Below are positions 25,653 to 63,935 of a stretch of 64,000 nucleotides of DNA, piece by piece. The stretch is from Nitrospirota bacterium (GTDB lineage Bacteria; Nitrospirota; Nitrospiria; Nitrospirales; Nitrospiraceae): positions 26,136 to 90,135 of the forward strand of contig JBFMAX010000010.1 of the NCBI GenBank assembly GCA_040755395.1, given 5' to 3'. The notes beneath the pieces are model-generated. The model searched no databases. It was given only the letters and a program-made list of their open reading frames with translations, and had not been told where the DNA came from. Positions within the stretch are counted from its first letter, which is position 1. Each line of letters opens with the position of its first letter. A program made the position numbers and the translations under genes.

Positions 25653-27025
25653 CGATAGAACCGCAATCCGGCGACTTGCGAAACCAGTTCTTCCACACGG
25701 CGGTTCACCGCGCTGAAGGGGTCCATGCAGAGGATCGTTTCTTCCCAGTAGCCGTTCAGCTTCAGGTAGGTCCAGTCCACCGTGTAGGACCGATTCTTGG
25801 CCCGCGCAAAGCGGATGAAGTCCCCGCGCACTTTGGCGCGGGTCGTCTGGGGCGGCACGGACATGGCCCGCTGGACTGACTCTTCGTCCACGACCCGCTC
25901 GATCATGCCGCGCGACTCCATCAGATAGTACAACCCGCGCGTGCGCTTCACATCGTGGTACTGCAGGTCCATCAGAAACACGCGGGGATCGTCCCAGCCG
26001 CACCCCCTCTTGTCCACGTAGGATTGAATGAGGAGCTTCTTGCTCACCCAATCCACCTCGCGGGTCAACTGCATCGGGTCTTCTTCCAATCGATCCAGCA
26101 CGTTGCCCCAGCGGGCCAACACGTCGTCCATGGTCGCGTCGTGCGATTGTTCCTTCAGGTAATCGTGCGCTCGCTCCCAATAGACCCGCTGGATTTCCAC
26201 GGCGGTCATCTGCCGTCCGTCGTCCAGCTTGACCTTTTTCTTGAGCGTCGGATCGCGCGAGATTTCCCGGATCGCCTTGACCGGGTCTTCCAATTCCATG
26301 CCGCTCACCGCATAGCCGTCCTCCACCATCGACAGCACCAGCGCCGCGGTGCCCACCTTCAGGTAGGTCGTATATTCGGACATGTTGGAATCGCCGACGA
26401 TGATGTGCAACCGGCGATACTTTTCGGCGTCCGCATGCGGTTCATCGCGCGTGTTGATGATGCTGCGAGACGAGGTCGTCGATGACGAGGTCTTCTCATG
26501 GATATGCTGCGCGCGCTGGGAGATGAAGAACTGGGGCTTGCCGGACACCTTGAGCACCTTGCCGGCGCCCGAGTAGATCTGGCGCGTGACGAAAAACGGG
26601 ATCAACTGCTCGGTGACCTTCCAGAAATCGACGTCGCGCCGCATCAGGTAATTTTCATGGCAACCGTAGGTGTTGCCGAGCGAGTCGGTGTTGTTTTTGA
26701 AAATGTAGATTTCCCCGGACAGGCCCTCCTCTCTCAGCCGTTCCTCCGCCGCCGGGAGACAGGCTTCCAGCAGCCGTTCCCCTGCCTTGTCGTGCACCAC
26801 CAGGTCCAGGATGTTGTCGCATTCGGGGGTGGAGTACTCGGGATGGCAGCCGGTGTCCTGGTAGAAGCGGGCGCCGTTCACCAGAAAGGCGTTGGAGGGC
26901 CAGCTGTTGGGAATAAGGCCCTCGAAGATATAGCCGAGGACCTTTTCCATCGGAAGATAGATCCGGCCGTTCGGCGAGAAAATCAGCCCGTATTCGTTCT
27001 CGAGACCGAAGATCCGTTGTCTCAT
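25649..27025 (-). CDS. pafA: Pup/UBact--protein ligase PafA
   Basis: MRQRIFGLENEYG...SNAFLVNGARFYQDTGCHPEYSTPE. Lacks the Dop-specific loop. Last gene of the proteasome cluster, as in actinobacteria. Confidence 0.85.
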   Translation of the reverse strand: MRQRIFGLENEYGLIFSPNGRIYLPMEKVLGYIFEGLIPNSWPSNAFLVNGARFYQDTGCHPEYSTPECDNILDLVVHDKAGERLLEACLPAAEERLREEGLSGEIYIFKNNTDSLGNTYGCHENYLMRRDVDFWKVTEQLIPFFVTRQIYSGAGKVLKVSGKPQFFISQRAQHIHEKTSSSTTSSRSIINTRDEPHADAEKYRRLHIIVGDSNMSEYTTYLKVGTAALVLSMVEDGYAVSGMELEDPVKAIREISRDPTLKKKVKLDDGRQMTAVEIQRVYWERAHDYLKEQSHDATMDDVLARWGNVLDRLEEDPMQLTREVDWVSKKLLIQSYVDKRGCGWDDPRVFLMDLQYHDVKRTRGLYYLMESRGMIERVVDEESVQRAMSVPPQTTRAKVRGDFIRFARAKNRSYTVDWTYLKLNGYWEETILCMDPFSAVNRRVEELVSQVAGLRFYR

Positions 27026-51669: not shown

Positions 51670-53928
51670 ATGACGATTGAAGAACGCATCAATGCGCTCA
51701 AGCTGCTGTGCCCCGATGTAGCGGAAGATATCCTGCGCGATTTCGTGTCGCGCATGGACCCCGACTACTTCGCGCACGTCCGGCCCGACGACATGGCGCG
51801 ACACGTCCGGCTCGCGTCGCGCCTGGACCCGGACCGCCCCTGCCAAGTCCACATTCAGCCCAAGGAAGACCCGTCGTTCGAGGTCGTGGTCGTCGCCTAC
51901 GACTACTTTTCGGAGTTCGCCACGATCTGCGGGCTGCTGTCCGCTTTCGGGCTCGACATCCAGGAAGGGCGTATCTACACGTTCTCCGACGCGGCGCCCG
52001 CCGTTGCGCCGCACATCGGATCGACATGGCCGTCGCGCCGCCCCAAAGCGCGTCCCGGCCTTGCGCGAAAAAAGATCGTCGATCTCTTTCGGGTTCGCCC
52101 CATGCCCGGCGTCGCGTTTTCTCCAGAGGAGCAACGCCGCCTGAGCGACGAATTGGACCGCATGATCCGCCTGCTGGATGCGCGGCAGTTCGAGCAGGCG
52201 CGCCAGCACGTGAACCGGCAGTTGGTCGAACGGCTCGGCAAACAGCGGGGCACCTTCACCGGCCTGCTGCAACCGGTTCAGATCACCTTCGACAACAGCC
52301 AGTCCGCGACCGACACGATCATGGACATCCGCTCGGACGACACGCCCGCGTTCCTGTATGCGTTCGCCAACGCGCTGGCCATGCGGAACGTCTACATCAC
52401 CAAAGCCCAGTTCGAGAACGTGGGTCCGAAGCTCCATGACCGCTTTTACGTCCGCGACCGTAACGGGCAGAAGATCGTCGATCCGGATGAACAGCAGAAC
52501 CTCCGGATCACCGCGGTCCTGATCAAACAGTTCACCCACGCGCTCACCTGGGCCCCCGACCCTGCAAAAGCGATCGAAGCCTTCGATCAGTTTCTGGACT
52601 TGATCCTCAAAGACGAGCGGGGTTCCAAGCGTCAAAAGGGCCTCGACTTCGTCAAAGACAAGAGGTCCTTTCCCCTGCTGGCCCACCTGCTGGGCGCCAG
52701 CGATTTCCTGTGGGAAGATTTCCTGCGCCGGCAGCATACCAATCTCCTGCCGATGCTGGAGACCTATCGGGTCGAGCCGCTCATCAAATCGAAGCAGGAG
52801 CTGGACAAGATCCTTCGGCGGCGCTTGGCGACCTGCAGAACCGACGAGCGGCGGCGGCAGGCGTTGAACCAGTTCAAGGACGAAGAGCTGTTCCGGATCG
52901 ACATGAAGCATCTTCTCGATCCCTCCACGAGCCTTGCCGACTTTTCGTTGGCCCTCACCCAGTTGGCCGAAGCCATCGTAAGTCGGAGCGTGACGGACTG
53001 CCGCGCGAAATTGGATCGTCTTCACGGCCGGCCGAGGCTCCCCGACCGCCGCCTTTGTCCATTCACGGTGCTGGGGATGGGCAAATTCGGCGGCCGTGAA
53101 CTGGGCTACGCCTCCGACATCGAAGTGCTCTTCGTCTATGGAGGCCCCGGCCGGACCGACGGCAGACACCCGCTGGACAACAGCGAGTACTTCGAACGGC
53201 TGGTCCAGGAACTCTTACGCTGGATCGAAGCCAAGCAGGAAGGGATTTTCCACCTGGATGTGCGCTTGCGGCCGCACGGGAGCAAGGGATCGCTGGTCAA
53301 CGCCCTCGACGAAGTCCGGACGTACTACAGTCCCGCGGGGCTGAGCGCCCCGTTCGAGCGGCAGGCGCTCATCAAGCTGCGCTACGTGGCCGGAGACGAG
53401 GGCTTGGGACGGCAGGTCGAAGCGCACCGCGATGCGTTCGTGTACAGTGGAGCGCCGTGGGATCTGGCGACGGCCCTCGACCTTCGGCGGCAGCAGGTGA
53501 AGGAACTGGTCGAACCGGGACGGATCAACGTGAAATACAGCCCGGGCGGGCTGATCGACGTGGAGTACGCCGTCCAGTATCTCCAACTGATGTACGGCCA
53601 TCAGCATCCGACGCTGAGAACCACGAACACGATGGACGCGCTGGCGGCCTTGGTCGAGACGGGACTGGTCGCCCGCGACGACGGTCTGCGTCTGCGCAAG
53701 GCCTACCTGTTTTTCAGAACTCTGATCGACGGGTTGAGGATGGTGCGGGGAAATGCAAAGGATCTGGTGCTGCCCGAGCCGGAATCGGACGACTTCGTAT
53801 TCCTCGCCCGGCGCGTCGGGTACACCGCCGAGGACTGGCAGGCCGGCGCAAGCCACTTACAATCCGACCTCGCCCGCCATATGGCCGACACCCGGGCGTT
53901 TTTCGAGCGACGGTTCGGCGCGGTCTGA
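51670..53928 (+). CDS. glnE: ACT-ACT-GlnE C-terminal-half (adenylyltransferase-type module) fusion protein
   Basis: 752 aa. Two ACT-like units: FEVVVVAYDYFSEFATICGLLSAFGLDIQEGRIYTF and TIMDIRSDDTPAFLYAFANALAMRNVYITKAQFEN...FYVRD. These are followed by GMGKFGGRELGYASDIEVLFVY, resembling the C-terminal NT motif of GlnE. Confidence 0.75.
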   Translation: MTIEERINALKLLCPDVAEDILRDFVSRMDPDYFAHVRPDDMARHVRLASRLDPDRPCQVHIQPKEDPSFEVVVVAYDYFSEFATICGLLSAFGLDIQEGRIYTFSDAAPAVAPHIGSTWPSRRPKARPGLARKKIVDLFRVRPMPGVAFSPEEQRRLSDELDRMIRLLDARQFEQARQHVNRQLVERLGKQRGTFTGLLQPVQITFDNSQSATDTIMDIRSDDTPAFLYAFANALAMRNVYITKAQFENVGPKLHDRFYVRDRNGQKIVDPDEQQNLRITAVLIKQFTHALTWAPDPAKAIEAFDQFLDLILKDERGSKRQKGLDFVKDKRSFPLLAHLLGASDFLWEDFLRRQHTNLLPMLETYRVEPLIKSKQELDKILRRRLATCRTDERRRQALNQFKDEELFRIDMKHLLDPSTSLADFSLALTQLAEAIVSRSVTDCRAKLDRLHGRPRLPDRRLCPFTVLGMGKFGGRELGYASDIEVLFVYGGPGRTDGRHPLDNSEYFERLVQELLRWIEAKQEGIFHLDVRLRPHGSKGSLVNALDEVRTYYSPAGLSAPFERQALIKLRYVAGDEGLGRQVEAHRDAFVYSGAPWDLATALDLRRQQVKELVEPGRINVKYSPGGLIDVEYAVQYLQLMYGHQHPTLRTTNTMDALAALVETGLVARDDGLRLRKAYLFFRTLIDGLRMVRGNAKDLVLPEPESDDFVFLARRVGYTAEDWQAGASHLQSDLARHMADTRAFFERRFGAV

Positions 53929-53937
53929 TCAGACCGC

Positions 53938-54741
53938 TCAGTCCTCGTCGACCACTCCTTCCAACGCCAGCCCGGACAACTCGTCATAGGCCCGCAGCAG
54001 ATCGGAGACCGAGAGCACGCCGATGATCGTGCCGTCCTCAGTAACCGGCAAGTGCCGAATTCCGTTCTCCTTCATAAGGCGGATCGCCTCGGTCATCGGT
54101 TCGGTGTCCTCAATCGTGAGGATCGACTTGCTCATGCACTGCTTGACGGTTGTGGTATTGGGATCGAGGCCGCGCGCCACCGCTTTTCGGCTGAGATCGG
54201 TGTCCGTGATGATGCCGATATATCGAAGGCCGTCATCGACCAGGAGGGACCCGACTTTCCACTTTTGGAGCAGCCGGCCGGCCTCCTTGATCGTCGCATC
54301 CCGATGGATGCTGCGGACATCGTGCGACATGTAGTCCGCCACCTTCACCCCGGCCAACACACTCGTTCGCCCGTTCCTGGAAGCCACCGCCGCCTTTTTC
54401 GCCTCCAGCTCCGAGATACAGCTTTCGATGACGCGCTTCCGCTGCTGAAGGCTTTCGCGATAGATATCCTGCGCCCCCCCTTCCTGCGCCTCTTCGGGCA
54501 AATTGACCAAGCCCGCCGCCTCGCCCAACTTGGCGTACTGGTAGGCTTCCAGTAGATCGGACGCCTCGCCGAAGACCCGGCTGATCAGTTGTTCGGTGGC
54601 GACGTCGAACTCATCGATGGAGGCGGACGACTTTTTTCTGGAGAGAAACGGCTGGAACTTCGCGAGCTGCTGGCGGAACCGTTCGAGGTCCCGGTCAAGA
54701 AACAGACCCCTGCTTAAGCTGGTCTTCATGGGCTTCTGCAT
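53938..54741 (-). CDS. CBS-pair domain protein with an uncharacterised N-terminal domain
   Basis: C-terminal tandem CBS motifs: VADYMSHDVRSIHRDATIKEA...GSLLVDD...GIITDTDL and ILTIEDTEPMTEAIRLMKENGIRHLPV. Confidence 0.8.
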   Translation of the reverse strand: MQKPMKTSLSRGLFLDRDLERFRQQLAKFQPFLSRKKSSASIDEFDVATEQLISRVFGEASDLLEAYQYAKLGEAAGLVNLPEEAQEGGAQDIYRESLQQRKRVIESCISELEAKKAAVASRNGRTSVLAGVKVADYMSHDVRSIHRDATIKEAGRLLQKWKVGSLLVDDGLRYIGIITDTDLSRKAVARGLDPNTTTVKQCMSKSILTIEDTEPMTEAIRLMKENGIRHLPVTEDGTIIGVLSVSDLLRAYDELSGLALEGVVDED

Positions 54742-54864
54742 ATCCGCTCCCTCACCTCGTCATTGGGAGCCCAAGCATACTCCAACGCCATGGGCCGCTC
54801 AAGAGGGGAGGGAGGCGCGGAGAAAGCGCGGGTCTTCCGCCAAGCAGCCCGTTCGGCCGCCGCC

Positions 54865-56280
54865 TCATCCTCCTCCCCGCTTGCCTTGCATCTCTTTCTC
54901 ATAGAATTCCAACATCTGGGCGATTTCATCCTTGGTCATCCCCTTCTCGATCCACTTATGGCCCTCCTTGCGAAGCATCTCTTCCGCCGCCTCGGGCGAC
55001 AACTCCCGCACCAGCGGCAGGAACTTGGTATAGAAATGCTTGGCCACTTCGTAGAAGCCCTGCCAGTGGACGTAATCCGGCGCGACCTTGGAAAGCCCGT
55101 GTCTGGCTCTCCGGCCCTCGTGGTGCCACAGTTCGTAGAACACCCATTCGATCTTTTCGTCAAACGGGGTCGGCGTGATCTTCTTCATTTCTTTAAGCCT
55201 GTCCATCGCCGCCTTGGCCGGTTTTCCAAATTTTTCGTTGTACAGCGTGATCCCCTGGTCCATTTGCGTGAAAAATCGCTCGACAATCTCGGGACTGTGG
55301 CACGAAGAACAGACCTGCTGCATGGCTTTCCGCCGGACTTCGTAATTCTCCAGCCGCGTCGAGATGACCGGACGTAAGGTCCAACTGATCCGGTCGCCCA
55401 CATCGTGGGTCACCTCCTGCGTCGTCGTCGCGCTCATATGGCAGGTTGCGCAAGTGGGATACAAATAATCTCTGCCCGGGTGCCACTTCTCCGCCGGTTC
55501 AGCGAGCTTCATCTTGTCCTTGTTCGCGCTGAACATGACGCCGTGCTTGCTCTCGTAGTACGCCTCAATCTGGGGATGATCCGGTCCCATGTGACAGCGG
55601 CCGCAGCTTTCCGGTTGCCGGGCCTGGGCGACGGAGAAACTATGTCGCGCATGGCAGGCGGAACAGGTCCCCTTTGATCCGTCCGGATTCACGCGGCCGA
55701 TTCCGGAATTGGGCCAGGTAGCCGGATGGAGCTTTCCGTTTTCCATCACCTTGACGACGCTTCCGTGGCAGCCGGCGCATCCGGCCGTGACTACTTCGGG
55801 CCCCTCCACTACGTTGCCCAGGAAATTGTCCAATGACCCGATGAACTGCGCACCCTTGGCGTGGTGGGACCTCGCAAACTCCTGCGCTTCCTTGTCATGG
55901 CAGCGCATGCAGTCTTTCGGCGTGACCAGGGTCGAGACCACCGTGCCGTAGTGGTCAAAGGCGTCAGGTTCGCCCTTCTCCGCCCGGTGGCATTCCACGC
56001 ACCCGATGCCTTTCGGCGCATGCCTGCTGACCTTCCAGTCGTTGATGCCCCCGATCGACACGTCTTTGGCCAGATGGCAGTCGATACACTTCTTGTTCTC
56101 GGCCGAGATGAACGGCCGCAGGCCGCCGCCTCGCCGCTCTTCCACCTGAACGTATCCGACGCCGGTCAGCGCGAGGAACAACACCAAGCACAGCCCGCCG
56201 ATCAGGTAGCGGGTGAAATTCAATTTGCCGTTCGGCGCCGGCTCCTGGTATCGGCTCAGTTCGCCGTCTGTCTCGTCCAC
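54865..56280 (-). CDS. Membrane-anchored octaheme cytochrome c (HAO/octaheme nitrite-reductase-like family)
   Basis: Eight CxxCH motifs: CIDCH, CVECH, CMRCH, CAGCH, CSACH, CGRCH, CATCH, CSSCH. One N-terminal TM helix. GTG 56280 is preceded by GGGAGGAA. TTG 56316 (track start) is an alternative. Confidence 0.85.
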   Translation of the reverse strand: MDETDGELSRYQEPAPNGKLNFTRYLIGGLCLVLFLALTGVGYVQVEERRGGGLRPFISAENKKCIDCHLAKDVSIGGINDWKVSRHAPKGIGCVECHRAEKGEPDAFDHYGTVVSTLVTPKDCMRCHDKEAQEFARSHHAKGAQFIGSLDNFLGNVVEGPEVVTAGCAGCHGSVVKVMENGKLHPATWPNSGIGRVNPDGSKGTCSACHARHSFSVAQARQPESCGRCHMGPDHPQIEAYYESKHGVMFSANKDKMKLAEPAEKWHPGRDYLYPTCATCHMSATTTQEVTHDVGDRISWTLRPVISTRLENYEVRRKAMQQVCSSCHSPEIVERFFTQMDQGITLYNEKFGKPAKAAMDRLKEMKKITPTPFDEKIEWVFYELWHHEGRRARHGLSKVAPDYVHWQGFYEVAKHFYTKFLPLVRELSPEAAEEMLRKEGHKWIEKGMTKDEIAQMLEFYEKEMQGKRGGG

Positions 56281-56320
56281 GGGTTCCTCCCACAACAGGC
56301 GATGGGCACGAGGCAAGTGG

Positions 56321-56381
56321 CTAGATGCGGAGAACGATTGCTTTTTCCTCTAGCCTCTAGCCCATCTCGTCCCTAGCCTCC
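56321..56381. repeat. Heptamer-periodic repeat (CCTCTAG family) with a partial inverted arm
   Basis: Left ggctagatgcggag. Right ctctagc ctctagc ccatctc gtcccta gcctccc. Confidence 0.6.
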
Positions 56382-56383
56382 CA

Positions 56384-57421
56384 TCACATTCTTGTATCCA
56401 GAATCATCAGCGTCGCGACCGCGACCACAACCAGGGTTCCGACCACCGCATTGACGATCGCCATCGGCCAACCCCGTTTCGACAATTCCTTGTCGATAAA
56501 CGGGTACACGACGAACACCACCGCTCCGCCGAACAGGCTCCAAAGCGCGACCGGTCCGGGCAGCAACGTGATCCACATGTACGGCGCCGAGAAATACCAA
56601 GGCGGCGAAACATCCACAGCGACCTCCTGGAGATTGGCCGGCTGGCCGAGGGTCGGAGGAAAGATCATGACCAGATCCACAATCAAGACCAGCAATCCGA
56701 CCGCGATCGCACTCATCGTCAACGTATGCTCCGGGTAGAACGGATGGTACCCCCGGCTCCCCTGCACATCCGCAAAGCCAATGAGTCGGACCACCAGCAC
56801 GTGACCCAGGACGAGGCACGCCAGCAAAACGGGCAAGAGTTTCGTGTGCAAATCGTAGAGCCGCAGAAGTGTGTTGGCTGAGACCTCTTCCCCGCCGCGC
56901 AGGAGATGGAGCAGCGGCGTCCCGACAATCGGCAGCGTCCCCAGCATGTTGGTCACGACCGTCATCCCCCAGTATGAGACGTTGTCGTACACCAACGAAT
57001 AGCCTGTGAATCCCATCGCGAAGGTCACGAACAGCACGATCGAGCCGGTGACCCATTTCAGTTCACCGGGTGCCCGGTAGGCGCGTGTCAGGAAGACGCG
57101 AATCACATGAAAAAGCAAAAACAGGATCATCAGGTCGACGGAAAACTTATGCAGACCGCGCACGAACCAACCGAGATAGATCTCGTTCGTGATCTGCTCG
57201 ACGCTCTCGTAAGCCTTCTCCGGCGACGGCACGTAGTAAAACGTCAGCATCAGACCGGTTGCCACCAGAAGCCCGAACAGGGTGAGCGGAATCGCCCCCA
57301 GCGTATAGGGCCACCAGTCGAGGTGTTGCGGCAGGTCCTTCTGGATGTAGTCGATCCACGTCTTGGTCTTGCCGTCTTGCTCGGCCGATTTGACGTGAAT
57401 CTGCGATACCAATGACTTCAT
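56384..57421 (-). CDS. Cytochrome b (fused b6/subunit IV-type)
   Basis: Helix B GLHKFSVDLMILFLLFH (H-x13-H) and helix D LHTKLLPVLLACLVLGH (H-x14-H), ~8 TM segments. ATG 57421 overlaps the Rieske stop (ATGA). Confidence 0.85.
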   Translation of the reverse strand: MKSLVSQIHVKSAEQDGKTKTWIDYIQKDLPQHLDWWPYTLGAIPLTLFGLLVATGLMLTFYYVPSPEKAYESVEQITNEIYLGWFVRGLHKFSVDLMILFLLFHVIRVFLTRAYRAPGELKWVTGSIVLFVTFAMGFTGYSLVYDNVSYWGMTVVTNMLGTLPIVGTPLLHLLRGGEEVSANTLLRLYDLHTKLLPVLLACLVLGHVLVVRLIGFADVQGSRGYHPFYPEHTLTMSAIAVGLLVLIVDLVMIFPPTLGQPANLQEVAVDVSPPWYFSAPYMWITLLPGPVALWSLFGGAVVFVVYPFIDKELSKRGWPMAIVNAVVGTLVVVAVATLMILDTRM

Positions 57422-57927
57422 CCCGTCCACCAGCTCTTAGCTATCAGCCTTCCGCTGCCAGCTTCCCCTACATTCTCCTCCTCCTTCATTTGAATATTCA
57501 CGTACAACTGACCGTTGCGTCTCACGACCTGATAGCGATCCAGCGGGCGCGGCGGCGGGCCGGCGATGTTGCGCCCGGTTTTGTCGAACACGCCCTGGTG
57601 GCACGGACACACGAACTGCCCGCGTTCCTTGCTCCAAGAAACCAGACAGCCGAGATCAGTGCAGCGCCGGGAAAAGGCCGTGATCCCTTCCTCGGTCTTG
57701 AGCACCATGATCTTATGACCGCCGAGATTCATCGGCACCGGTTCGCCCATCGGCACGCGCGCTTCGGCTCCGATCAAGACCGCTTCGTACTGTCTCGGCT
57801 TTTGGCTCGGCACCAGGAACTGCATAAAACGCAGCGCCAGCGCGCCCATCCCGAAGAGCGCCCCGAACGCCATCACGGCCTGGCTCAGAAACCGGCGCCG
57901 CCCGATGTCGTTGTGAATCACAGCCAT
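57418..57927 (-). CDS. Rieske-type [2Fe-2S] protein with an atypical box I (C-T-D-L-G-C)
   Basis: Twin-arginine signal GRRRFLSQAVMAFGALFG. Box I is CTDLGC (tgc act gat ctc ggc tgt, read directly) and box II is CPCH. Confidence 0.85.
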   Translation of the reverse strand: MAVIHNDIGRRRFLSQAVMAFGALFGMGALALRFMQFLVPSQKPRQYEAVLIGAEARVPMGEPVPMNLGGHKIMVLKTEEGITAFSRRCTDLGCLVSWSKERGQFVCPCHQGVFDKTGRNIAGPPPRPLDRYQVVRRNGQLYVNIQMKEEENVGEAGSGRLIAKSWWTG

Positions 57928-57943
57928 GGGAACCGCCGGGAAT

Positions 57944-58025
57944 CGTTCATCGTGAATCGTGAATCGGAGAGGCCTTTCTTACGTTTAACGAATAACGTTT
58001 CACGTTTAACGTCGTCACGAATACG
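57944..58025. repeat. Heptamer-periodic inverted repeat array (CGTKAAY / RTTMACG family)
   Basis: Left arm cgttcat cgtgaat cgtgaat. Right arm tttaacg aataacg tttcacg tttaacg tcgtcacg aatacg. Confidence 0.85.
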
Positions 58026-59181
58026 CCTTCTCCCCATGCTGCGCCAGATCGAGGCCCAGAATTTCGGCCTCCTGGTCGACGCGCGACGGCATCAGCCGCT
58101 GAAGGGCTTTGATCAAGAGCATCGTCATCACACCGGCGTAGGCCCAGGCCACGACAGCGGCAACCACCTGGGCCACGAACTGATAAGGATAGCCGTAGAA
58201 CAGGCCGTCGCTCCCGTCGGGATTGACTGCCGTAGAGGCGAACAACCCGGTAGAGATCATGCCCCACGTCCCGCCGACGCCGTGCATGCCGAACACATCC
58301 AGCGAGTCGTCGTACCCCAAGATCGGCTTCACAAAGTTCACGGCCATATAACACAGCCCTCCGGCCCCGATGCCGATCACCATCGCCGACAGCGGACCGA
58401 CATAGCCGGCCGCCGGCGCGATCGCCACCAGGCCGGCCACGGCCCCGCTGACCGTGCCCAACGCCGTCGGCTTGTCCCGTTGCAGCCACTCCGCAGCGGT
58501 CCAGGCCAATGCAGCGGAAGCCGCAGCCAATTGAATCGCCACGAACGCGCCGGTGACTGCCGTCATCGATGCCGCACCCGGTCTGCCTGCAAAACCCCAC
58601 CACCCCACCCACATGAAGCCTGCGCCGCAGATCGAGAGGGGAAGATGATGCGGCATCATGTCCGTCCGTCCGAATCCCTTCCGCGGTCCGATCAGGATCG
58701 CAGCCACCAGGGCCGCCACCCCGGCGCTAATGTGGATGACCGCCCCTCCGGCGAAGTCCAGGCTGCCCAGATTGGCCAGCCACCCGCCGCCCCAGAGCCA
58801 GGACGCCAACGGCGCGTAGACCAGCGCCATCCATAACGTCCCGAACAGCAGAAAGAACGGCAATCGGATCCGCTCCACCACCGCGCCGGCTACCAGTGCG
58901 AGCGCCAACGCCGCGGCCACGGCGGAAAAGATCGACGGCAACGAGCCGGCATCCTGCCCCGAATCGGGTGCCAACCCGACCGCACGGCTCACACCCGACG
59001 CGTCGTCGGCACACAGCCATCCGATCGACGCCAGCAAGAGCGCCGAGAGGGGAAGCGCCATGGCGTTGAGCGCGTTCTTCCTCCGCACCATCCCGCTGTA
59101 AAACAGCGCCACGCCCGGAATGGTCAGGAGGGTGAACGTGTTGGCGACGAGCAGCCAGAGAATCTGGTCGGAACGAGCCAT
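58015..59181 (-). CDS. amt: Ammonium transporter (Amt family)
   Basis: MARSDQILWLLVANTFTLLTIPGVALFYSGMVRRKN...LDFAGGAVIHISAGVAALVAA. ATG 59181 overlaps the upstream TAA (TAATG). Confidence 0.9.
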   Translation of the reverse strand: MARSDQILWLLVANTFTLLTIPGVALFYSGMVRRKNALNAMALPLSALLLASIGWLCADDASGVSRAVGLAPDSGQDAGSLPSIFSAVAAALALALVAGAVVERIRLPFFLLFGTLWMALVYAPLASWLWGGGWLANLGSLDFAGGAVIHISAGVAALVAAILIGPRKGFGRTDMMPHHLPLSICGAGFMWVGWWGFAGRPGAASMTAVTGAFVAIQLAAASAALAWTAAEWLQRDKPTALGTVSGAVAGLVAIAPAAGYVGPLSAMVIGIGAGGLCYMAVNFVKPILGYDDSLDVFGMHGVGGTWGMISTGLFASTAVNPDGSDGLFYGYPYQFVAQVVAAVVAWAYAGVMTMLLIKALQRLMPSRVDQEAEILGLDLAQHGEKAYS

Positions 59182-59414
59182 TAGGCTGCGGCTCTCTTGA
59201 GAGAGACTCGATACTCGCAACGCCGGACCGGCTGAAGCGAGACCATCCCGGCTCGGCTCAGCCGGTCGACCGCCAGAAATACCTGCGACCAACTGGCATC
59301 GGTCAAAAAATAGGCGAGTGCTTCCAACGTCTGCGGGTTTTGCGCGCGCAAGGCCTCAAGAACCCGCTCCTCGGTGGACGTGCAATGGATAAAGTCGTGG
59401 GCTGACGCGCTCAT
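59181..59414 (-). CDS. Small (77 aa) winged-helix-like protein translationally coupled to amt
   Basis: GGGAGG lies 5 nt before ATG 59414. MSASAHDFIHCTSTEERVLEALRAQNPQTLEALAYFLTDASWSQVFLAVDRLSRAGMVSLQPV. The family assignment is only fold-level. Confidence 0.5.
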   Translation of the reverse strand: MSASAHDFIHCTSTEERVLEALRAQNPQTLEALAYFLTDASWSQVFLAVDRLSRAGMVSLQPVRRCEYRVSLKRAAA

Positions 59415-59438
59415 GATGACCTCCCTTGCAGAGAGATC

Positions 59439-59454
59439 AGCAACTCCGGTGCCA
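59439..59454 (-). promoter_or_regulatory. Sigma54 (RpoN) promoter
   Basis: Minus strand cTGGCAC-cggag-TTGCTg, an exact match to TGGCAC-N5-TTGCW. Lies 24 nt upstream of ATG 59414. Confidence 0.7.
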
Positions 59455-59515
59455 GGACGCATCTGCCGAAAACTCCCACGAATGCAGACCATCGCGCCGA
59501 AAGGCGACACCGGCA

Positions 59516-59529
59516 CGACAATTTTGTCG
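59516..59529. promoter_or_regulatory. 14-nt perfect palindrome CGACAATTTTGTCG upstream of the sigma54 promoter (candidate activator site)
   Basis: Centre lies ~75 nt upstream of the -24 element. Confidence 0.35.
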
Positions 59530-59670
59530 GAAAACAGACAAAAAGGAAGGGAGGCAGACAGAGGGTGGCCCCGCTTTCCGCTGTGCTCGCGCAACGCGCG
59601 CAAGATCCATTTTCCGAAAGCGGGCGGTCCGGGGGGCCCATTGCGCTTCAAATGCTGCCGGGAGCGTCGG

Positions 59671-60060
59671 TCAGCAGGTGGGAATGGACCTTGTACGGGC
59701 CAGGTAGGAAGCCACGAATTCGTTGAGGCGCGCCTCGGCTTCGGGAGCGATCCTGACGATTTGCAGTCCGAATTCGAGGCCGTTCATCCAGCGGACGGCT
59801 GCTCGTTCCACGTCCAGAGGCCTCGGGTCATTCGGAAGAAACACGCGCAGGGTGAGGTTCATATCGAGGTAGATCGGGTGGTTGCCTTCGATACGATAGC
59901 CGTTGATGGACAGGTCGGACACGGTTCCGGTCCCCATGAAATCTTCAGCGAGGTAGTAGACGAAGCATCGCACGGGGATTCGACGGTACAGCCGCTTGCT
60001 TGGGCGGTCGCCCATGCCGTCGTTCTGTCTCTCTGATCCGGAGGTTGAGCCCATGGTCAT
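59671..60060 (-). CDS. PilZ-domain protein
   Basis: RLYRRIPVR (RxxxR) and DLSINGYRI (D.S..G) c-di-GMP-binding motifs. Confidence 0.75.
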   Translation of the reverse strand: MTMGSTSGSERQNDGMGDRPSKRLYRRIPVRCFVYYLAEDFMGTGTVSDLSINGYRIEGNHPIYLDMNLTLRVFLPNDPRPLDVERAAVRWMNGLEFGLQIVRIAPEAEARLNEFVASYLARTRSIPTC

Positions 60061-60181
60061 GATTTCCCGGCCTACTTAAACTTAAAGCGTTTCGGCAGCG
60101 GTTGGACATCCGTGTGGACGAGCAGATGTCGCCGCAAGGCGGCTTGTGCGACGTCGATCATCATTCATCATTGCAACCCCG

Positions 60182-60376
60182 TTAGGCACAGGTCCCGGCT
60201 AAAACGGCCAGGGTCACGAACTCCACAAGACTGAACATATCCACGGTCTCCTTGCCTGGCATACGGTCATCGTTTTGTCCCTCATCACAAAGCATAGAAG
60301 GAACCGAGACGGGACGGTATTCCCCGAAGAACCTACCTCCAAAGGAGGGATACGGGTTCCAATCGCCTTCTGCCAC
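60182..60376 (-). CDS. Doubtful small ORF; possibly only the last 18 codons (MFSLVEFVTLAVLAGTCA) are translated
   Basis: AAGGAGA lies 8 nt before ATG 60238. The region has lower GC. No family was recognised. Confidence 0.2.
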   Translation of the reverse strand: MAEGDWNPYPSFGGRFFGEYRPVSVPSMLCDEGQNDDRMPGKETVDMFSLVEFVTLAVLAGTCA

Positions 60377-60550
60377 ACCACCAAAGGCTCACGAATTACC
60401 TAGACAACCTCATTAGTTACAAACTTATCCCCAGGGGAACACTATCAACCGTTCCGGAGTGGAAAAGAGGAAGGACTGTGTGCTCCAAAGTAGGGATGGA
60501 CGGCGGGTCATAAAGGAATGCCCTGGATCGCCCTTAGGCGAAGTGGCAGG

Positions 60551-62461
60551 CTAGAAGGGCGAGTCAAGAACCGCGCGGACTTTCTCCAGCAGCACGTCCG
60601 GCGTGAACGGTTTCTGGACGAAAGCCGGAACCGGATCGGATGGATCCCGACGGAGTGCGACGTGATCGGTGTATCCGGACATATACAGCACTTTGATCTG
60701 CGGACGGATCGACTGGGACAGTGTCGCCAATTCCCGGCCGTTCATCCCGGGCAGCAACACATCGGTCAGCAGCAAGTGAATGGGACCCGAGTGCTCGCGA
60801 CAGAGCGACACCGCTTCTTCGCCGCTTTGCGCTTGAAGGACGGCGTAGCCGTTGGATTCCAGGATCGTGCAGACCAGGGCGCGCACCATGCCGTTGTCTT
60901 CGACGACCAGCACGGTTTCGGATACGCTCGGGGCACGGCTGCGAACCGCTGCTTCCTCCCCGATGCGAACGTCGGTAACGCGCGGAAAGTACAGTTTGAA
61001 GGTCGTGCCCCGACCCAGCACGCTGTCGACGGTGATGAACCCGCCGCTTTGCTTGACGATCCCGTATACGGTCGACAACCCCAGCCCCGCGCCCTGCCCG
61101 GGCTTGGTGGTAAAGAACGGATCGAACACATGCGCCAGAGTATGGGAGTCCATACCCATCCCCGTGTCCCGGACCAGCAGGCGAACGTACAGACTCGGCT
61201 CGATATGCGGACCTGGTCCGATATCGGCGGCCACCACGTTGGCCGTTTCCAATGTCAGCGTACCGCCTCCGGACATCGCTTCACGGGCGTTGACTGCCAG
61301 ATTTACCAGCACCTGTTCAAGTTGGCCGGGATCGATTTTCACGCCGCCGACGCCGGAACCGGAGACCACGACCAAGGCGATGTCGTCGCCTAACAACCGG
61401 CGCAACAGGTCGGCGTAGTCGGCCAGGACCGCGTTCAAGTCCAGAAGTTTGGGTTGCACCACCTGCTTCCGGCTGAACGTGAGGAGTTGATCGGTCAGCT
61501 TGCTCGCTTGTTCACCGGCTTTCTTGATCTCCGTGACATATCCGCGAAGCGGGTCCGGCCGGTTAAGCCGGCTGAGGATCAGTTCGCAATAAGCTGTGAC
61601 GACGGTGAGCAGATTGTTGAAATCGTGCGCCACCCCTCCGGCAAACCGCCCCAGCGCTTCCATTCGCTGAGCGTCACGCAGGTGCTGCTCCAATTGCCGC
61701 CGCTCCGTGATGTCCACCAACATCGTGACCATCGGGGAATCAGCCGCCGCACCAAGGACCTTCATGAAGACGAGGGCCGCGCGGATGTCGCCGCTCCTGC
61801 GCCGGAATGCGCATTCGACGTTTGAAACCGCGCCTTCGTCGCGCAGTCTCTTGAGGATCTTGTCCCGTTCAGCCGGAACGGCCCAGAGGTTCAGCTCCTG
61901 AACGGTCTTCCCGATCATCTCCTCCGGTGCATATCCGAACAGCTCGGCATAGCGCTCGTTCACCTCGAGGAGCCGACCCTCGACCGTGCCCAAGCTGATC
62001 GGAATCGGACCTGCCCGGAACACGGCGGTGAGTCTTTCCCGGGCTCGTTCCTCCTTCGCTTGTTCTCGCCGGAGTTTGCCGCACTCGGCCGCCTCGTTCA
62101 GTTCCCGCTCAATCGTGGACACCAGCGACGAGAGGTCTTCTTTCAAACACAGGTTTCTGGCGCCGGCCCTGATCAGCGAAACCGCCGCCTTTTCGCCGAT
62201 CCGATCGGAGACGATCAGGAGAGGCACATCGAGTCCTTTGCGCTTCAACACCGACAGCGCCCCGAGCGCGCTGAATTCCGGCAAGACGTGATCGGCGAGG
62301 ATGAGGTCCCAGGGTTGGCGTTCCACAGCCTCTTCAAAAGCGGGTTCGATGGCCACTCGTTCCACCGACGGCTCATACCCCCCGCGCTGCATGGCCTGCG
62401 CCAGCCGTTCGACTTCTTCGTCCGATTCGTTGACGCAGAGGACGCGGAGGAGCCTGCCCAT
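60551..62461 (-). CDS. Hybrid sensor kinase/response regulator (REC-PAS-HisKA-HATPase-REC)
   Basis: ATG 62461 (MGRLLRVLCVNESDEE...DLILADHVLPEF). PAS motif NERYAELFGYAPEEMIG. H-box GGVAHDFNNLL. DTGMGM and GQGAGLGLS. C-terminal receiver LLLTDVLLPGMNG. Confidence 0.85.
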   Translation of the reverse strand: MGRLLRVLCVNESDEEVERLAQAMQRGGYEPSVERVAIEPAFEEAVERQPWDLILADHVLPEFSALGALSVLKRKGLDVPLLIVSDRIGEKAAVSLIRAGARNLCLKEDLSSLVSTIERELNEAAECGKLRREQAKEERARERLTAVFRAGPIPISLGTVEGRLLEVNERYAELFGYAPEEMIGKTVQELNLWAVPAERDKILKRLRDEGAVSNVECAFRRRSGDIRAALVFMKVLGAAADSPMVTMLVDITERRQLEQHLRDAQRMEALGRFAGGVAHDFNNLLTVVTAYCELILSRLNRPDPLRGYVTEIKKAGEQASKLTDQLLTFSRKQVVQPKLLDLNAVLADYADLLRRLLGDDIALVVVSGSGVGGVKIDPGQLEQVLVNLAVNAREAMSGGGTLTLETANVVAADIGPGPHIEPSLYVRLLVRDTGMGMDSHTLAHVFDPFFTTKPGQGAGLGLSTVYGIVKQSGGFITVDSVLGRGTTFKLYFPRVTDVRIGEEAAVRSRAPSVSETVLVVEDNGMVRALVCTILESNGYAVLQAQSGEEAVSLCREHSGPIHLLLTDVLLPGMNGRELATLSQSIRPQIKVLYMSGYTDHVALRRDPSDPVPAFVQKPFTPDVLLEKVRAVLDSPF

Positions 62462-62612
62462 CGAAAAAGCCGCTTTCGAGGTGTGAGCGAAAGGATTACA
62501 CACATACCCCCTTGCGCCTCGCGAACTCAACTGGAAAATCGCGCTCCCCCCAAAAGAGGAAGGGGGTAGGAATCCAGAGGGGGCCCGGGTGGGGAAACCA
62601 GACGCGGCTGCC

Positions 62613-63935
62613 TTACGAGTACGCGCGCTCGTTGTGTTGGCTGATATCCAACCCGATCGACTCCTCCTCGGGCGACACCCGGAGACCCACTGCGCGTTGC
62701 ACCACCTTCAGAATCGCAAACGTTCCCGCACAGGAAAACGCCGCGACCGTGAGCGCAGCCAACATCTGGACCCCGAACAAGCCGGGGTTGCCGAAGAAGA
62801 GACCGTCGGCGCCGCCGGGGTTGACGGCCTTGGAAGCAAACAGTCCTGTGGCGAGAATGCCGAAGATGCCACCGACGCCATGGATGCCGACGACGTCCAG
62901 CGAGTCGTCATAGCCGAACTTCCCTTTCCAGATGATCCCGAGATAACTCAGAACGCCGGCCGCCAATCCGATCACCAGCGCGGAGAACGGCCCCACATAG
63001 CCGGCGCCCGGCGTGACCGTCGCAAGGCCGGCAATGGCGCCGCTAGCGACCCCCAAGACCGTCGGCGTTCCCCGATGGACCCACTCGATCAGCACCCAGG
63101 CCAACGCCCCGGCCGCCGCCGCGGTGTGCGTGGCGACAAACGCCGTCACTGCGGTTTGATTCGCCCCAAGGGCGCTGCCCGCGTTGAAGCCGAACCACCC
63201 GAACCAGAGCAGCCCCGTCCCTAAGAGCGTCATCGGGAGATTGTGCGGCGCCATGTAATCGGTTCCGTAGCCGTGACGCACGCCGAGCGCCAGCGCGCAG
63301 ACAAGGGCGCTGACCCCGGAGCTGATATGCACGACGGCGCCTCCGGCGAAATCCAGCGCCCCCAGGCTCCCCAGCCACCCTCCGCCCCACAGCCAATGAG
63401 CGACCGGCGCGTACACAAACAGGGACCAGAGCGCGGCGAACAACACCAGCGCGCCGAATTTCATCCGCTCGGCGAAGGCGCCGGTAATCAAGGCCGGGGT
63501 GATCGCCGCAAACATGAGTTGAAACACCATGAACGCTTGATGGGGAACGGTGGGACCGTAGGTTGCGTGCGGCGCCATCCCCACCCCGTTCAACCCGACC
63601 CAGTCGAGCCCGCCGATGACGCCCCATAGATCGGGACCGAAGGCCAGACTGTACCCGACCGACACCCACAGCACACTGACCAGACACAGAATGACGAAAC
63701 TCTGCATGATCGTCCCGAGCACGTTCTTGCTCCGGACCAGACCGCCGTAAAACAGCGCCAGGCCCGGCACGATCATCGCCAGCACCAAGGCCGACGAGAC
63801 CAACACCCACGCCGTGTCCGCGGCATTGACCGCGGCTGCGCCGGCCGCAGACGATCCCTCCTGCGCCCAGGTTGTTTCTCCGACGATCAATGAAATCCCC
63901 CATAGGCACGCCGCCCTCCGTCCGGTCTTCTGCAT
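62613..63935 (-). CDS. amt: Ammonium transporter (Amt family) with a signal peptide
   Basis: MQKTGRRAACLWGISLIVGETTWAQE..., then LDFAGGAVVHISSGVSALVCA. 440 aa. Confidence 0.9.
   Translation of the reverse strand: MQKTGRRAACLWGISLIVGETTWAQEGSSAAGAAAVNAADTAWVLVSSALVLAMIVPGLALFYGGLVRSKNVLGTIMQSFVILCLVSVLWVSVGYSLAFGPDLWGVIGGLDWVGLNGVGMAPHATYGPTVPHQAFMVFQLMFAAITPALITGAFAERMKFGALVLFAALWSLFVYAPVAHWLWGGGWLGSLGALDFAGGAVVHISSGVSALVCALALGVRHGYGTDYMAPHNLPMTLLGTGLLWFGWFGFNAGSALGANQTAVTAFVATHTAAAAGALAWVLIEWVHRGTPTVLGVASGAIAGLATVTPGAGYVGPFSALVIGLAAGVLSYLGIIWKGKFGYDDSLDVVGIHGVGGIFGILATGLFASKAVNPGGADGLFFGNPGLFGVQMLAALTVAAFSCAGTFAILKVVQRAVGLRVSPEEESIGLDISQHNERAYS

Follow-up and report, generated by a model that had tools for sequence, protein, structure and literature searches.

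An aspartate at the box-I histidine position of a Rieske subunit is co-inherited with a remodelled quinol-oxidising site in the Nitrospira octahaem nitrite reductase module

In a 64,000-nucleotide stretch of a Nitrospirota bacterium genome (GenBank assembly GCA_040755395.1, contig JBFMAX010000010.1, forward-strand positions 26,136 to 90,135; hereafter, the window), we found a Rieske iron-sulfur subunit in which aspartate (D91) stands where box I normally supplies a histidine ligand to the [2Fe-2S] cluster. This substitution is shared by the Nitrospira orthologues and accompanies a remodelled quinol-oxidising (Qo) site in the cytochrome b encoded immediately downstream. Ligation by two cysteines and two histidines defines the Rieske centre, and for enzymes of the complex-III type it is taken to be invariant. 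Both the high potential of the centre and the proton-coupled electron transfer with which the Q cycle begins depend on the two histidines. With moderate confidence, we propose that the protein holds a Cys2/His/Asp-ligated [2Fe-2S] cluster that would work in a remodelled quinol-oxidising site feeding assimilatory nitrite reduction.

The gene cluster itself is already known as the Nitrospira octahaem nitrite reductase (ONR) module, in which a Rieske/cytochrome b pair is combined with the octahaem enzyme (Koch 2015, as cited in PMC6606698). By contrast, neither the exchanged ligand nor the Qo remodelling inherited with it appears to have been described in the searchable literature. There, papers on the ONR module included, we found no relevant description of an Asp-ligand (CTDLGC) Rieske substitution, and none of a characterised complex-III-type Rieske protein that carries it, in keeping with what an initial annotation made from the DNA alone had supposed.

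Aspartate replaces the box-I histidine in an otherwise typical Rieske subunit

The product of the Rieske open reading frame (ORF) belongs to the Rieske domain family by its match to Pfam PF00355 (E=1e-12; 48.1 bits against a cut-off of 20.3). Box I of Rieske proteins is defined as C-x-H-x-G-C, and the ORF instead reads C-T-D-L-G-C. Alignments bear out the aspartate that the initial annotation had read from the translation: phmmer placed D91 opposite the histidine of CTHLGC in the solved Rieske structures 9rk4, 8hn2, and 9rk3, and D91 fell in the same column when the protein was aligned with 128 His-type relatives. Box II is preserved as C107-P-C109-H110, which together with C94 provides the disulfide pair of bc-type Rieske proteins. 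As had also been noted at the outset, H110 is the sole histidine of the cluster-binding stretch, the only others in the protein being H5 and H71. H5 lies N-terminal to the twin-arginine translocation (Tat) motif and the membrane anchor and, from the predicted topology, should be cytoplasmic, and H71 is just 68% conserved. An alignment of 121 sequences contained no additional conserved histidine or cysteine in the periplasmic Rieske domain that might serve as a substitute ligand. We also found no second Rieske motif within the 64-kb window.

The remainder of the protein is, as first described, that of a normal Tat-exported Rieske subunit. C89, C94, C107, C109, H110, G112, the twin-arginine motif (R10-L14), and the proline loop G-P-P-P-R-P-L (G123-L129) were invariant in the 121 sequences, and the AF2 model contained an N-terminal helix over residues 7-38 with block pLDDT values of 86-93. 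Foldseek searches with this model returned Rieske domains as the top matches (probability 1.00; target-normalised TM-scores of 0.72-0.74), the best being those of 8hn2 and 9rk4. The NCBIfam models NF045928, TIGR01416, and NF010001 scored 52-55 bits against cut-offs of 97-250, and the NCBIfam b6f/bc1 Rieske models overall scored 41-55 bits against family cut-offs of 97-275 bits. These scores are so far below the cut-offs that the protein is a relative of the named b6f/bc1 families and not a member of them.

With the canonical Rieske proteins of b6f, bc1, and menaquinol:cytochrome c reductase complexes (Chlorobaculum tepidum 8hn2, PetC, and QcrA), the window protein has in common the fold, the Tat anchor, box II, the disulfide, the proline loop, and a neighbouring cytochrome b gene. 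It differs from them in the box-I aspartate and in having an octahaem enzyme as the presumed electron acceptor. Both the Tat anchor and the neighbouring cytochrome b identify it as a subunit of a Rieske/cytochrome b complex, and the Asp-type protein is derived from the small b6f-type Rieske subunits found in such complexes and works as they do.

The aspartate is fixed and under strong purifying selection

An independently assembled contig (L001; Logan SRR29635775) was identical in sequence to the window. Among the 120 homologue clusters that matched best (70-95% identity), 119 had CTDLGC, and box I was invariant throughout these clusters apart from G93 in the remaining one, which reads CTDLVC. 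Two further homologue searches brought the total to 170 cluster representatives with aspartate. The aspartate was likewise found in 22/22 species-level Nitrospira genome loci and in cultured Nitrospira moscoviensis (orthologue P0096), with no CTHLGC among the Nitrospira orthologues. Both aspartate codons are in use, at a GAT:GAC ratio of 18:9 over 27 Asp-type stretches, a set in which the N. moscoviensis gene is represented by three copies and the window by two.

Readable relatives outside the Asp clade were uniformly of the His type. In a library clustered at 50% identity, the whole Nitrospira group collapsed into one entry, and histidine was present in each of the 138 representatives that followed with a readable motif, as well as in 104 further relatives of the nearest outgroups (2 + 102) and in loci L005-L007 and L030-L040. 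Altogether, about 250 readable cluster representatives outside the clade had histidine. This survey for Asp or Glu variants covered homologue clusters, Nitrospira loci, and the nearest outgroups rather than Rieske proteins generally.

Position 91 was the sole Rieske column that separated the Asp-type representatives from the His-type relatives compared. We considered the Arg-Arg preceding C89, S97, and Q111 as changes coupled to the aspartate and rejected them, as the divergent Asp-type proteins P0272 and P0275 have Ser-Val, Gly, and Met/Gln at these places; judged by the sequences compared, these residues are specific to the Nitrospira clade. Apparent ligand variants among the relatives (P0121, P0123, P0132, and P0134; e.g., CTVLGC...CPAH) were also discarded as fragments or frameshifted calls, P0121 having no gene on record. 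Separately, the box II of five His-type relatives (P0228, P0259, P0391, P0396, and P0422) reads S-P-C-H instead of C-P-C-H, which places serine at the position of a ligand cysteine and represents another unusual cluster-site variant.

Pairwise dN/dS ratios (nonsynonymous to synonymous substitution rates) from 24 orthologous sequences, L001, identical to the window, among them, were 0.04 for residues 84-131, 0.23 for residues 45-83, and 0.10 over the gene as a whole, values that are rough because dS is near saturation. No other part of the Rieske gene is as constrained as the cluster-binding segment (residues 84-131), which is under strong purifying selection. These observations dispose of the idea that the aspartate stems from an error in sequencing or assembly, from a mutation confined to one strain, or from a pseudogene in decay. 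A single-base change from CAT to GAT would suffice for such an event and nothing else speaks in its favour, whereas the identical independent assembly, the presence of aspartate in 170 clusters and more than 22 species with both codons, a dN/dS of 0.1, and high expression of the gene in N. moscoviensis (PMC6606698) refute it.

The partner cytochrome b has a remodelled Qo site

Immediately downstream of the Rieske gene in all loci lies the gene for cytochrome b, which in the window is one fused polypeptide instead of separate b6 and subunit IV chains. When aligned with cytochrome b6, the protein proved to retain the four axial histidines of the b haems, in GLHKF, LFHVI, DLHTK, and LGHVL. At residues 39-43 (57293-57307), Y-T-L-G-A stands where b6 has Y-C-L-G-G, the cysteine of which covalently binds haem ci/cn in b6; the protein thus has no haem ci/cn cysteine and in this respect is not of the b6 type.

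PPWY was present in every cytochrome b beside an Asp-type Rieske protein whose locus covers the Qo motif, and the Asp-type modules accordingly lack the carboxylate at position 2 of PEWY or PDWY. Beside His-type Rieske proteins, we observed PEWY (L005 twice, L037, L067, and L068), PAWY (L006/L007), and PDWY (L039). Seven fixed cytochrome b columns distinguish the Asp type from the His-type sister clade: E274P, A152G, T153M, G156V, R119G, N122K, and K28. E274P falls in the Qo motif, and A152G, T153M, and G156V lie in the segment W-G-x-T-V-x-T-N, which we take from bc1/b6f homology to be the cd1 helix that lines the Qo pocket and the docking surface of the Rieske head. The arginine of P-R-E-L-N-W, replaced by glycine here, presumably contacts a haem b propionate. 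The PPWY and cd1-helix remodelling tracks the aspartate without exception.

We know of no report of an Acidithiobacillus ferrooxidans Rieske protein without the histidine ligand, and the bc1 complex of this organism, which also runs in reverse, provides a useful comparison. It has the same PPWY without a position-2 carboxylate, but its motif originated independently within a gamma-proteobacterial clade and has been explained as an acid adaptation (PMC4122944). One alternative is that Asp and PPWY are adapted to reversed or non-bifurcating operation, with electrons passing from a periplasmic multihaem protein into the quinone pool or with quinol oxidised without a Q cycle. Proline at Qo position 2 is found both in the A. 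ferrooxidans complex and in an APWY clade with one member that has been proposed to run a reversed Q cycle (PMC4122944), and a lower-potential Rieske centre would be expected to favour reverse flow. However, the nitrogen-assimilation context of the module (amt, P-II, and GlnE-like genes) and the reported finding that ammonium represses ONR in N. japonica both argue for flow toward nitrite, and the authors of PMC4122944 ascribe PPWY to low-pH adaptation rather than to the direction of flow. We regard reversed or non-bifurcating operation as quite unlikely.

Asp/PPWY modules have a single origin and share octahaem partners with His-type modules

The Asp type extends beyond Nitrospira. Three proteins from metagenome-assembled genome records labelled 'Deltaproteobacteria' (P0306, P0311, and P0320) are Asp-type, of which P0306 (locus L066), encoded next to two amt genes and a P-II gene, shares 55% identity with the window protein. 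P0272 and P0275 (locus L065) are divergent, at 42% identity, and combine CTDLGC with a PPWY cytochrome b. In a cytochrome b tree, built like all our trees by neighbour joining only, all Asp/PPWY modules formed one clade with a bootstrap of 100, which was unchanged after the seven diagnostic columns had been removed. The sister of this clade was a His/PEWY clade that likewise consists of Rieske-cytochrome b-octahaem modules. The Rieske protein is short, and its tree could not place P0272 and P0275 (bootstrap 24-30). Two separate origins of the aspartate by convergence were not supported, since the longer cytochrome b favours a single one.

The simplest reading of these trees is a single origin, with the Rieske and cytochrome b changes occurring on the same branch and being kept to about 42-46% identity. 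If there was one origin only, the Asp/PPWY pairing represents a single evolutionary event and not replicated covariation, and the argument for coupling between the Rieske protein and cytochrome b comes from the persistence of the pairing.

The His-type sister modules (P0122/L005, P0270/L067, and P0300/L068) have the same three-gene architecture and the same two octahaem families as the Asp-type modules. Identity is 47-50% for the Rieske proteins and 40-47% for the cytochromes b, but the His-type modules carry C-(T/P)-H-L-G-C, PEWY, W-A-T-x-V-G-T-N, and P-R-E-L-N-W. Comparison of the octahaem cytochromes showed that the one at Asp-type locus L065 is 62% identical to the octahaem of His-type locus L005b and 29% identical to Nitrospira ONR, and that the nearest relative of Nitrospira ONR (35%) is the octahaem of His-type locus L068. 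Both Rieske states are therefore found with both octahaem families, and the 62% identity implies that octahaem partners have been exchanged between Rieske/cytochrome b lineages. These results weaken the argument of the initial annotation that the aspartate fits a dedicated role with the neighbouring octahaem cytochrome, as Asp and His modules share the same two unrelated octahaem types. Tuning of the aspartate to an ONR partner was rejected on the same grounds, octahaem type being uncorrelated with Asp or His.

Several of these loci had further features in their surroundings. A gene resembling a GAF/AAA+ sigma-54 activator precedes the divergent Asp-type module (L065:2-823, minus strand, and L065:3009-4268). 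Two complete His/PEWY Rieske-cytochrome b-octahaem modules lie on one contig of JGI metagenome 3300013233 (L005:1-8808), on either side of a cluster with genes for NapD, a molybdopterin oxidoreductase, and a 4Fe-4S protein. At L068, genes for NapD and a 4Fe-4S ferredoxin lie upstream, along with a 766-aa gene without a domain call at the cut end.

A Cys2/His/Asp-ligated cluster is the favoured reading of the Asp-type site

We propose a model in which the box-I histidine ligand was changed to aspartate and fixed, this change having arisen once and on the branch on which the Qo pocket was remodelled through the PEWY Glu-to-Pro change, the three cd1-helix changes, and the Arg-to-Gly and Asn-to-Lys changes in P-R-E-L-N-W. 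The [2Fe-2S] cluster would be kept, with C89 and C107 binding one iron and H110 and the carboxylate of D91 binding the other. H110 would still accept the electron and the first proton from quinol. With the neutral imidazole exchanged for an anionic oxygen ligand, the iron that is reduced would be expected to have a lower midpoint potential, and one of the two redox-linked protonatable ligands would be lost through the aspartate. The octahaem enzyme would then receive electrons from the cluster and stand in for cytochrome c1 or f.

Other residues of the site can be read in the same direction. G112 and F114 are found where high-potential Rieske proteins have Ser and Tyr as hydrogen-bond donors; we take this to mean that these donors are lacking and that the site resembles the low-potential menaquinol type. 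In yeast, the box-II residue His181 hydrogen bonds to quinol or stigmatellin and is regarded as the first proton acceptor, with Glu272 of PEWY as the other proposed acceptor (PMC9162462). When mapped by motif, H110 corresponds to yeast His181, and the retained box-II histidine is the quinol-hydrogen-bonding histidine of bc1 structures, a point that the first reading of the sequence had missed. The module therefore combines the retained quinol-binding histidine with aspartate at the other histidine ligand and proline at the PEWY glutamate.

Natural and engineered clusters provide partial precedents. The Rrf2-family regulator RsrR, with a Cys/His/Glu [2Fe-2S] cluster, has an unrelated fold and serves regulation rather than an electron-transfer chain. 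Its two cysteines bind one iron and its histidine and glutamate the other, with the ligands coming from two subunits. As a natural [2Fe-2S] protein with Cys, His, and carboxylate ligation (Volbeda 2019, as cited in PMC9338935), it is nonetheless a precedent for the ligand set proposed here. Rieske or Rieske-like sites with one histidine exchanged include the archaeal Rieske ferredoxin (ARF) variants H64C and H44C and the mitoNEET-like 3Cys/1His site. The box-II histidine of ARF is replaceable, and the box-II variant H64C holds a low-potential cluster, whereas the box-I His-to-Cys exchange abolished cluster assembly (PMC2946596). These ARF variants differ from the Asp-type proteins in being engineered and in having cysteine rather than aspartate, and the exchange that failed is the one at the position changed here.

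Several points weigh against a Cys2/His/Asp-ligated cluster in a remodelled Qo site. The ARF result indicates that the box-I position is not freely exchangeable. We infer the ligation, potential, and proton coupling in the Asp clade from sequence, and the energetic rationale, which depends on the Nitrospira quinone and the ONR haem potentials, is qualitative. The AF2 model is of moderate confidence (mean pLDDT of 69.7, with 70-81 in the domain) and contains no cofactor. Finally, tuning to the partner cannot be the whole story given that octahaem type does not track Asp or His, which points to the quinol-oxidising site instead.

The same ARF result bears on two other ways to understand D91. In one, the cluster is kept and D91 does not ligate it, the second iron being completed by water or hydroxide or by a residue of cytochrome b or the octahaem cytochrome, while D91 acts as a second-sphere proton relay that replaces the PEWY glutamate. 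The intolerance of the ARF box-I position to a cysteine ligand (PMC2946596) would agree with this, as would the fact that the branch on which the Qo site lost its carboxylate (E to P) is also the one on which the Rieske tip gained one. Against it, aspartate, though shorter than histidine, sits exactly at the ligand position of a rigid, disulfide-braced loop that is otherwise unchanged, a ligand from a partner subunit would block movement of the Rieske head domain, and the domain offers no conserved extra histidine or cysteine. A relay of this kind thus seems improbable to us.

In the other, the [2Fe-2S] cluster is lost. Rieske-fold proteins without a cluster do exist, NirD being an example. 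The Cys2/His/Asp site might then bind mononuclear Fe or Zn or nothing, leaving the Rieske protein as a structural or assembly subunit and electrons to reach the octahaem by another route. A mononuclear Fe site has been engineered into a Rieske scaffold, and the ARF box-I variant that fails to assemble a cluster also fits this alternative (PMC2946596). However, the three remaining ligands, the disulfide cysteine pair, the proline loop, and the Tat motif are all invariant, constraint on the gene is strongest in the cluster loops, and cytochrome b keeps its four haem histidines and a recognisable, if altered, Qo site, which makes loss of the cluster unlikely.

An extension of the Cys2/His/Asp proposal is that Asp/PPWY complexes constitute a distinct class, in which the second proton-accepting carboxylate has moved from the PEWY glutamate to the aspartate ligand of the cluster, the histidine and aspartate are both acceptors, and the potential lies much below those of known bc-type Rieske centres. 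We consider this extension unlikely. If it were true, such a relocation of the Qo carboxylate onto the cluster would alter the way in which quinol electron bifurcation occurs, or whether it occurs at all.

The known systems closest to the Asp-type modules include the Rieske/cytochrome b complexes of anammox bacteria, in which hexa- or octahaem cytochromes replace cytochrome c1 or f (PMC12954380). Their Rieske proteins Kuste4569/Kustd1480 (PDB 9rk4 and 9rk3) provided the best (9rk4, E=4e-18) and third-best (9rk3, 2.6e-15) PDB sequence matches to the window protein and also rank high among its fold matches. Like the Asp-type protein, they are small b6f-type Rieske domains. The anammox proteins differ in having CTHLGC, 2His/2Cys ligation, and measured potentials above +300 mV (PMC12954380), and the anammox complexes additionally carry NAD(P) oxidoreductase subunits.

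The Rieske gene lies in the ONR module within a nitrogen-assimilation neighbourhood

The genes for amt, the Rieske protein, cytochrome b, the octahaem cytochrome c, and a CBS-domain protein form a minus-strand operon in the window (Table 1). The association of the Rieske gene with those for cytochrome b and the octahaem cytochrome, proposed in the initial annotation, proved to be general, with the order amt-Rieske-cytochrome b-ONR kept in 22/22 genome loci and in N. moscoviensis. Identities to the N. moscoviensis locus (L002) are 75% for the Rieske protein, 80% for cytochrome b, and 86% for ONR, and ONR is 83-96% identical across Nitrospira loci. By both orthology and gene order, the locus is a member of the Nitrospira ONR module. 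The closest solved structure to the window ONR is 4qo5, followed by hydroxylamine oxidoreductases; its N terminus includes a hydrophobic stretch, and its start codon is uncertain, the public gene call being 471 aa. In N. moscoviensis, the Rieske/cytochrome b and ONR genes are highly expressed with nitrite as the sole nitrogen source, and the literature assigns the module to the quinol-dependent reduction of nitrite to ammonium for assimilation (PMC6606698; PMC12342949), an assignment that draws on expression evidence.

The Rieske gene of this genome ends in a 21-aa C-terminal extension (EEENVGEAGSGRLIAKSWWTG) that is predicted to be disordered and that looks like the product of a lost stop codon. 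Because of this extension, the Rieske stop codon TGA overlaps the cytochrome b ATG as ATGA (57418-57421) in this genome only. In all 13 orthologues checked, the Rieske protein is 145-150 aa long and a spacer precedes cytochrome b. Translational coupling to cytochrome b, part of the initial annotation, is thus borne out by a real overlap here and is not a conserved trait of the module.

The amt-Rieske spacer (57928-58014, minus strand) contains tandem repeats of a GATTCAC-like heptamer and two copies of CGTTAAACGT, which could be a regulatory site. The gap between these genes is only 3 nt in N. moscoviensis, so the spacer is not conserved across the genus. More widely, window positions 51670-63935 make up a regulon-like nitrogen-assimilation neighbourhood, which also contains a gene for a PilZ protein.

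Table 1. Positions of the Rieske gene, its motifs, and neighbouring features in the window
Feature	Position	Strand	Basis or remark
Rieske iron-sulfur subunit, Asp-type, 169 aa	57418..57927	-	ORF and Pfam PF00355
Twin-arginine motif R10-R-R-F-L14	57886..57900	-	R10-L14 invariant in 121 sequences
Predicted N-terminal membrane-anchor helix, residues 13-38	57814..57891	-	AF2
Box I, C89-T-D91-L-G-C94	57646..57663	-	Translation; C89 cluster ligand, C94 disulfide Cys
D91 codon GAT, box-I His ligand position	57655..57657	-	Translation and alignment to PDB chains
Box II, C107-P-C109-H110	57598..57609	-	Translation; C107 and H110 ligands, C109 disulfide Cys
C-terminal extension, residues 149-169 and stop	57418..57483	-	Missing in 13 orthologues; pLDDT 33-35
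Cytochrome b, b6-like N-terminal part fused to subunit-IV-like C-terminal part	56384..57421	-	Pfam PF00033 and PF13631
P-G-E-L-K-W for P-R-E-L-N-W (R119G and N122K)	57053..57070	-	
cd1-helix segment W-G-M-T-V-V-T-N, against W-A-T-(T/V)-V-G-T-N of the His-type sister clade	56948..56971	-	
Qo motif P-P-W-Y for PEWY, cytochrome b residues 273-276	56594..56605	-	
Octahaem cytochrome c (Nitrospira 'ONR')	54865..56316	-	8 CxxCH motifs
Ammonium transporter (amt), directly upstream of Rieske	58015..59292	-	Pfam PF00909
GlnE/GlnD-like nucleotidyltransferase	51670-53928		
CBS-pair protein	53938-54741		
Hybrid PAS histidine kinase with receiver domains	60551-62530		
Second amt paralogue	62613-63935		

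Implications

A natural and strongly conserved His-to-Asp variant of the Rieske centre amounts to a ready-made experiment on what each histidine contributes. The variant is expressed in cultured N. moscoviensis and is directly testable there, it comes with a matched change in the Qo pocket, and the close His/PEWY sister modules can be used as controls. One modest practical consequence concerns annotation, as names such as 'cytochrome b6-f iron-sulfur subunit' and 'ubiquinol-cytochrome c reductase iron-sulfur subunit' mask the atypical cofactor site. For the organisms themselves, the finding bears on how nitrite-oxidising bacteria, for which quinol is costly, pay for nitrogen assimilation, in that the potential of an Asp-type centre would set the energy that the module can conserve.

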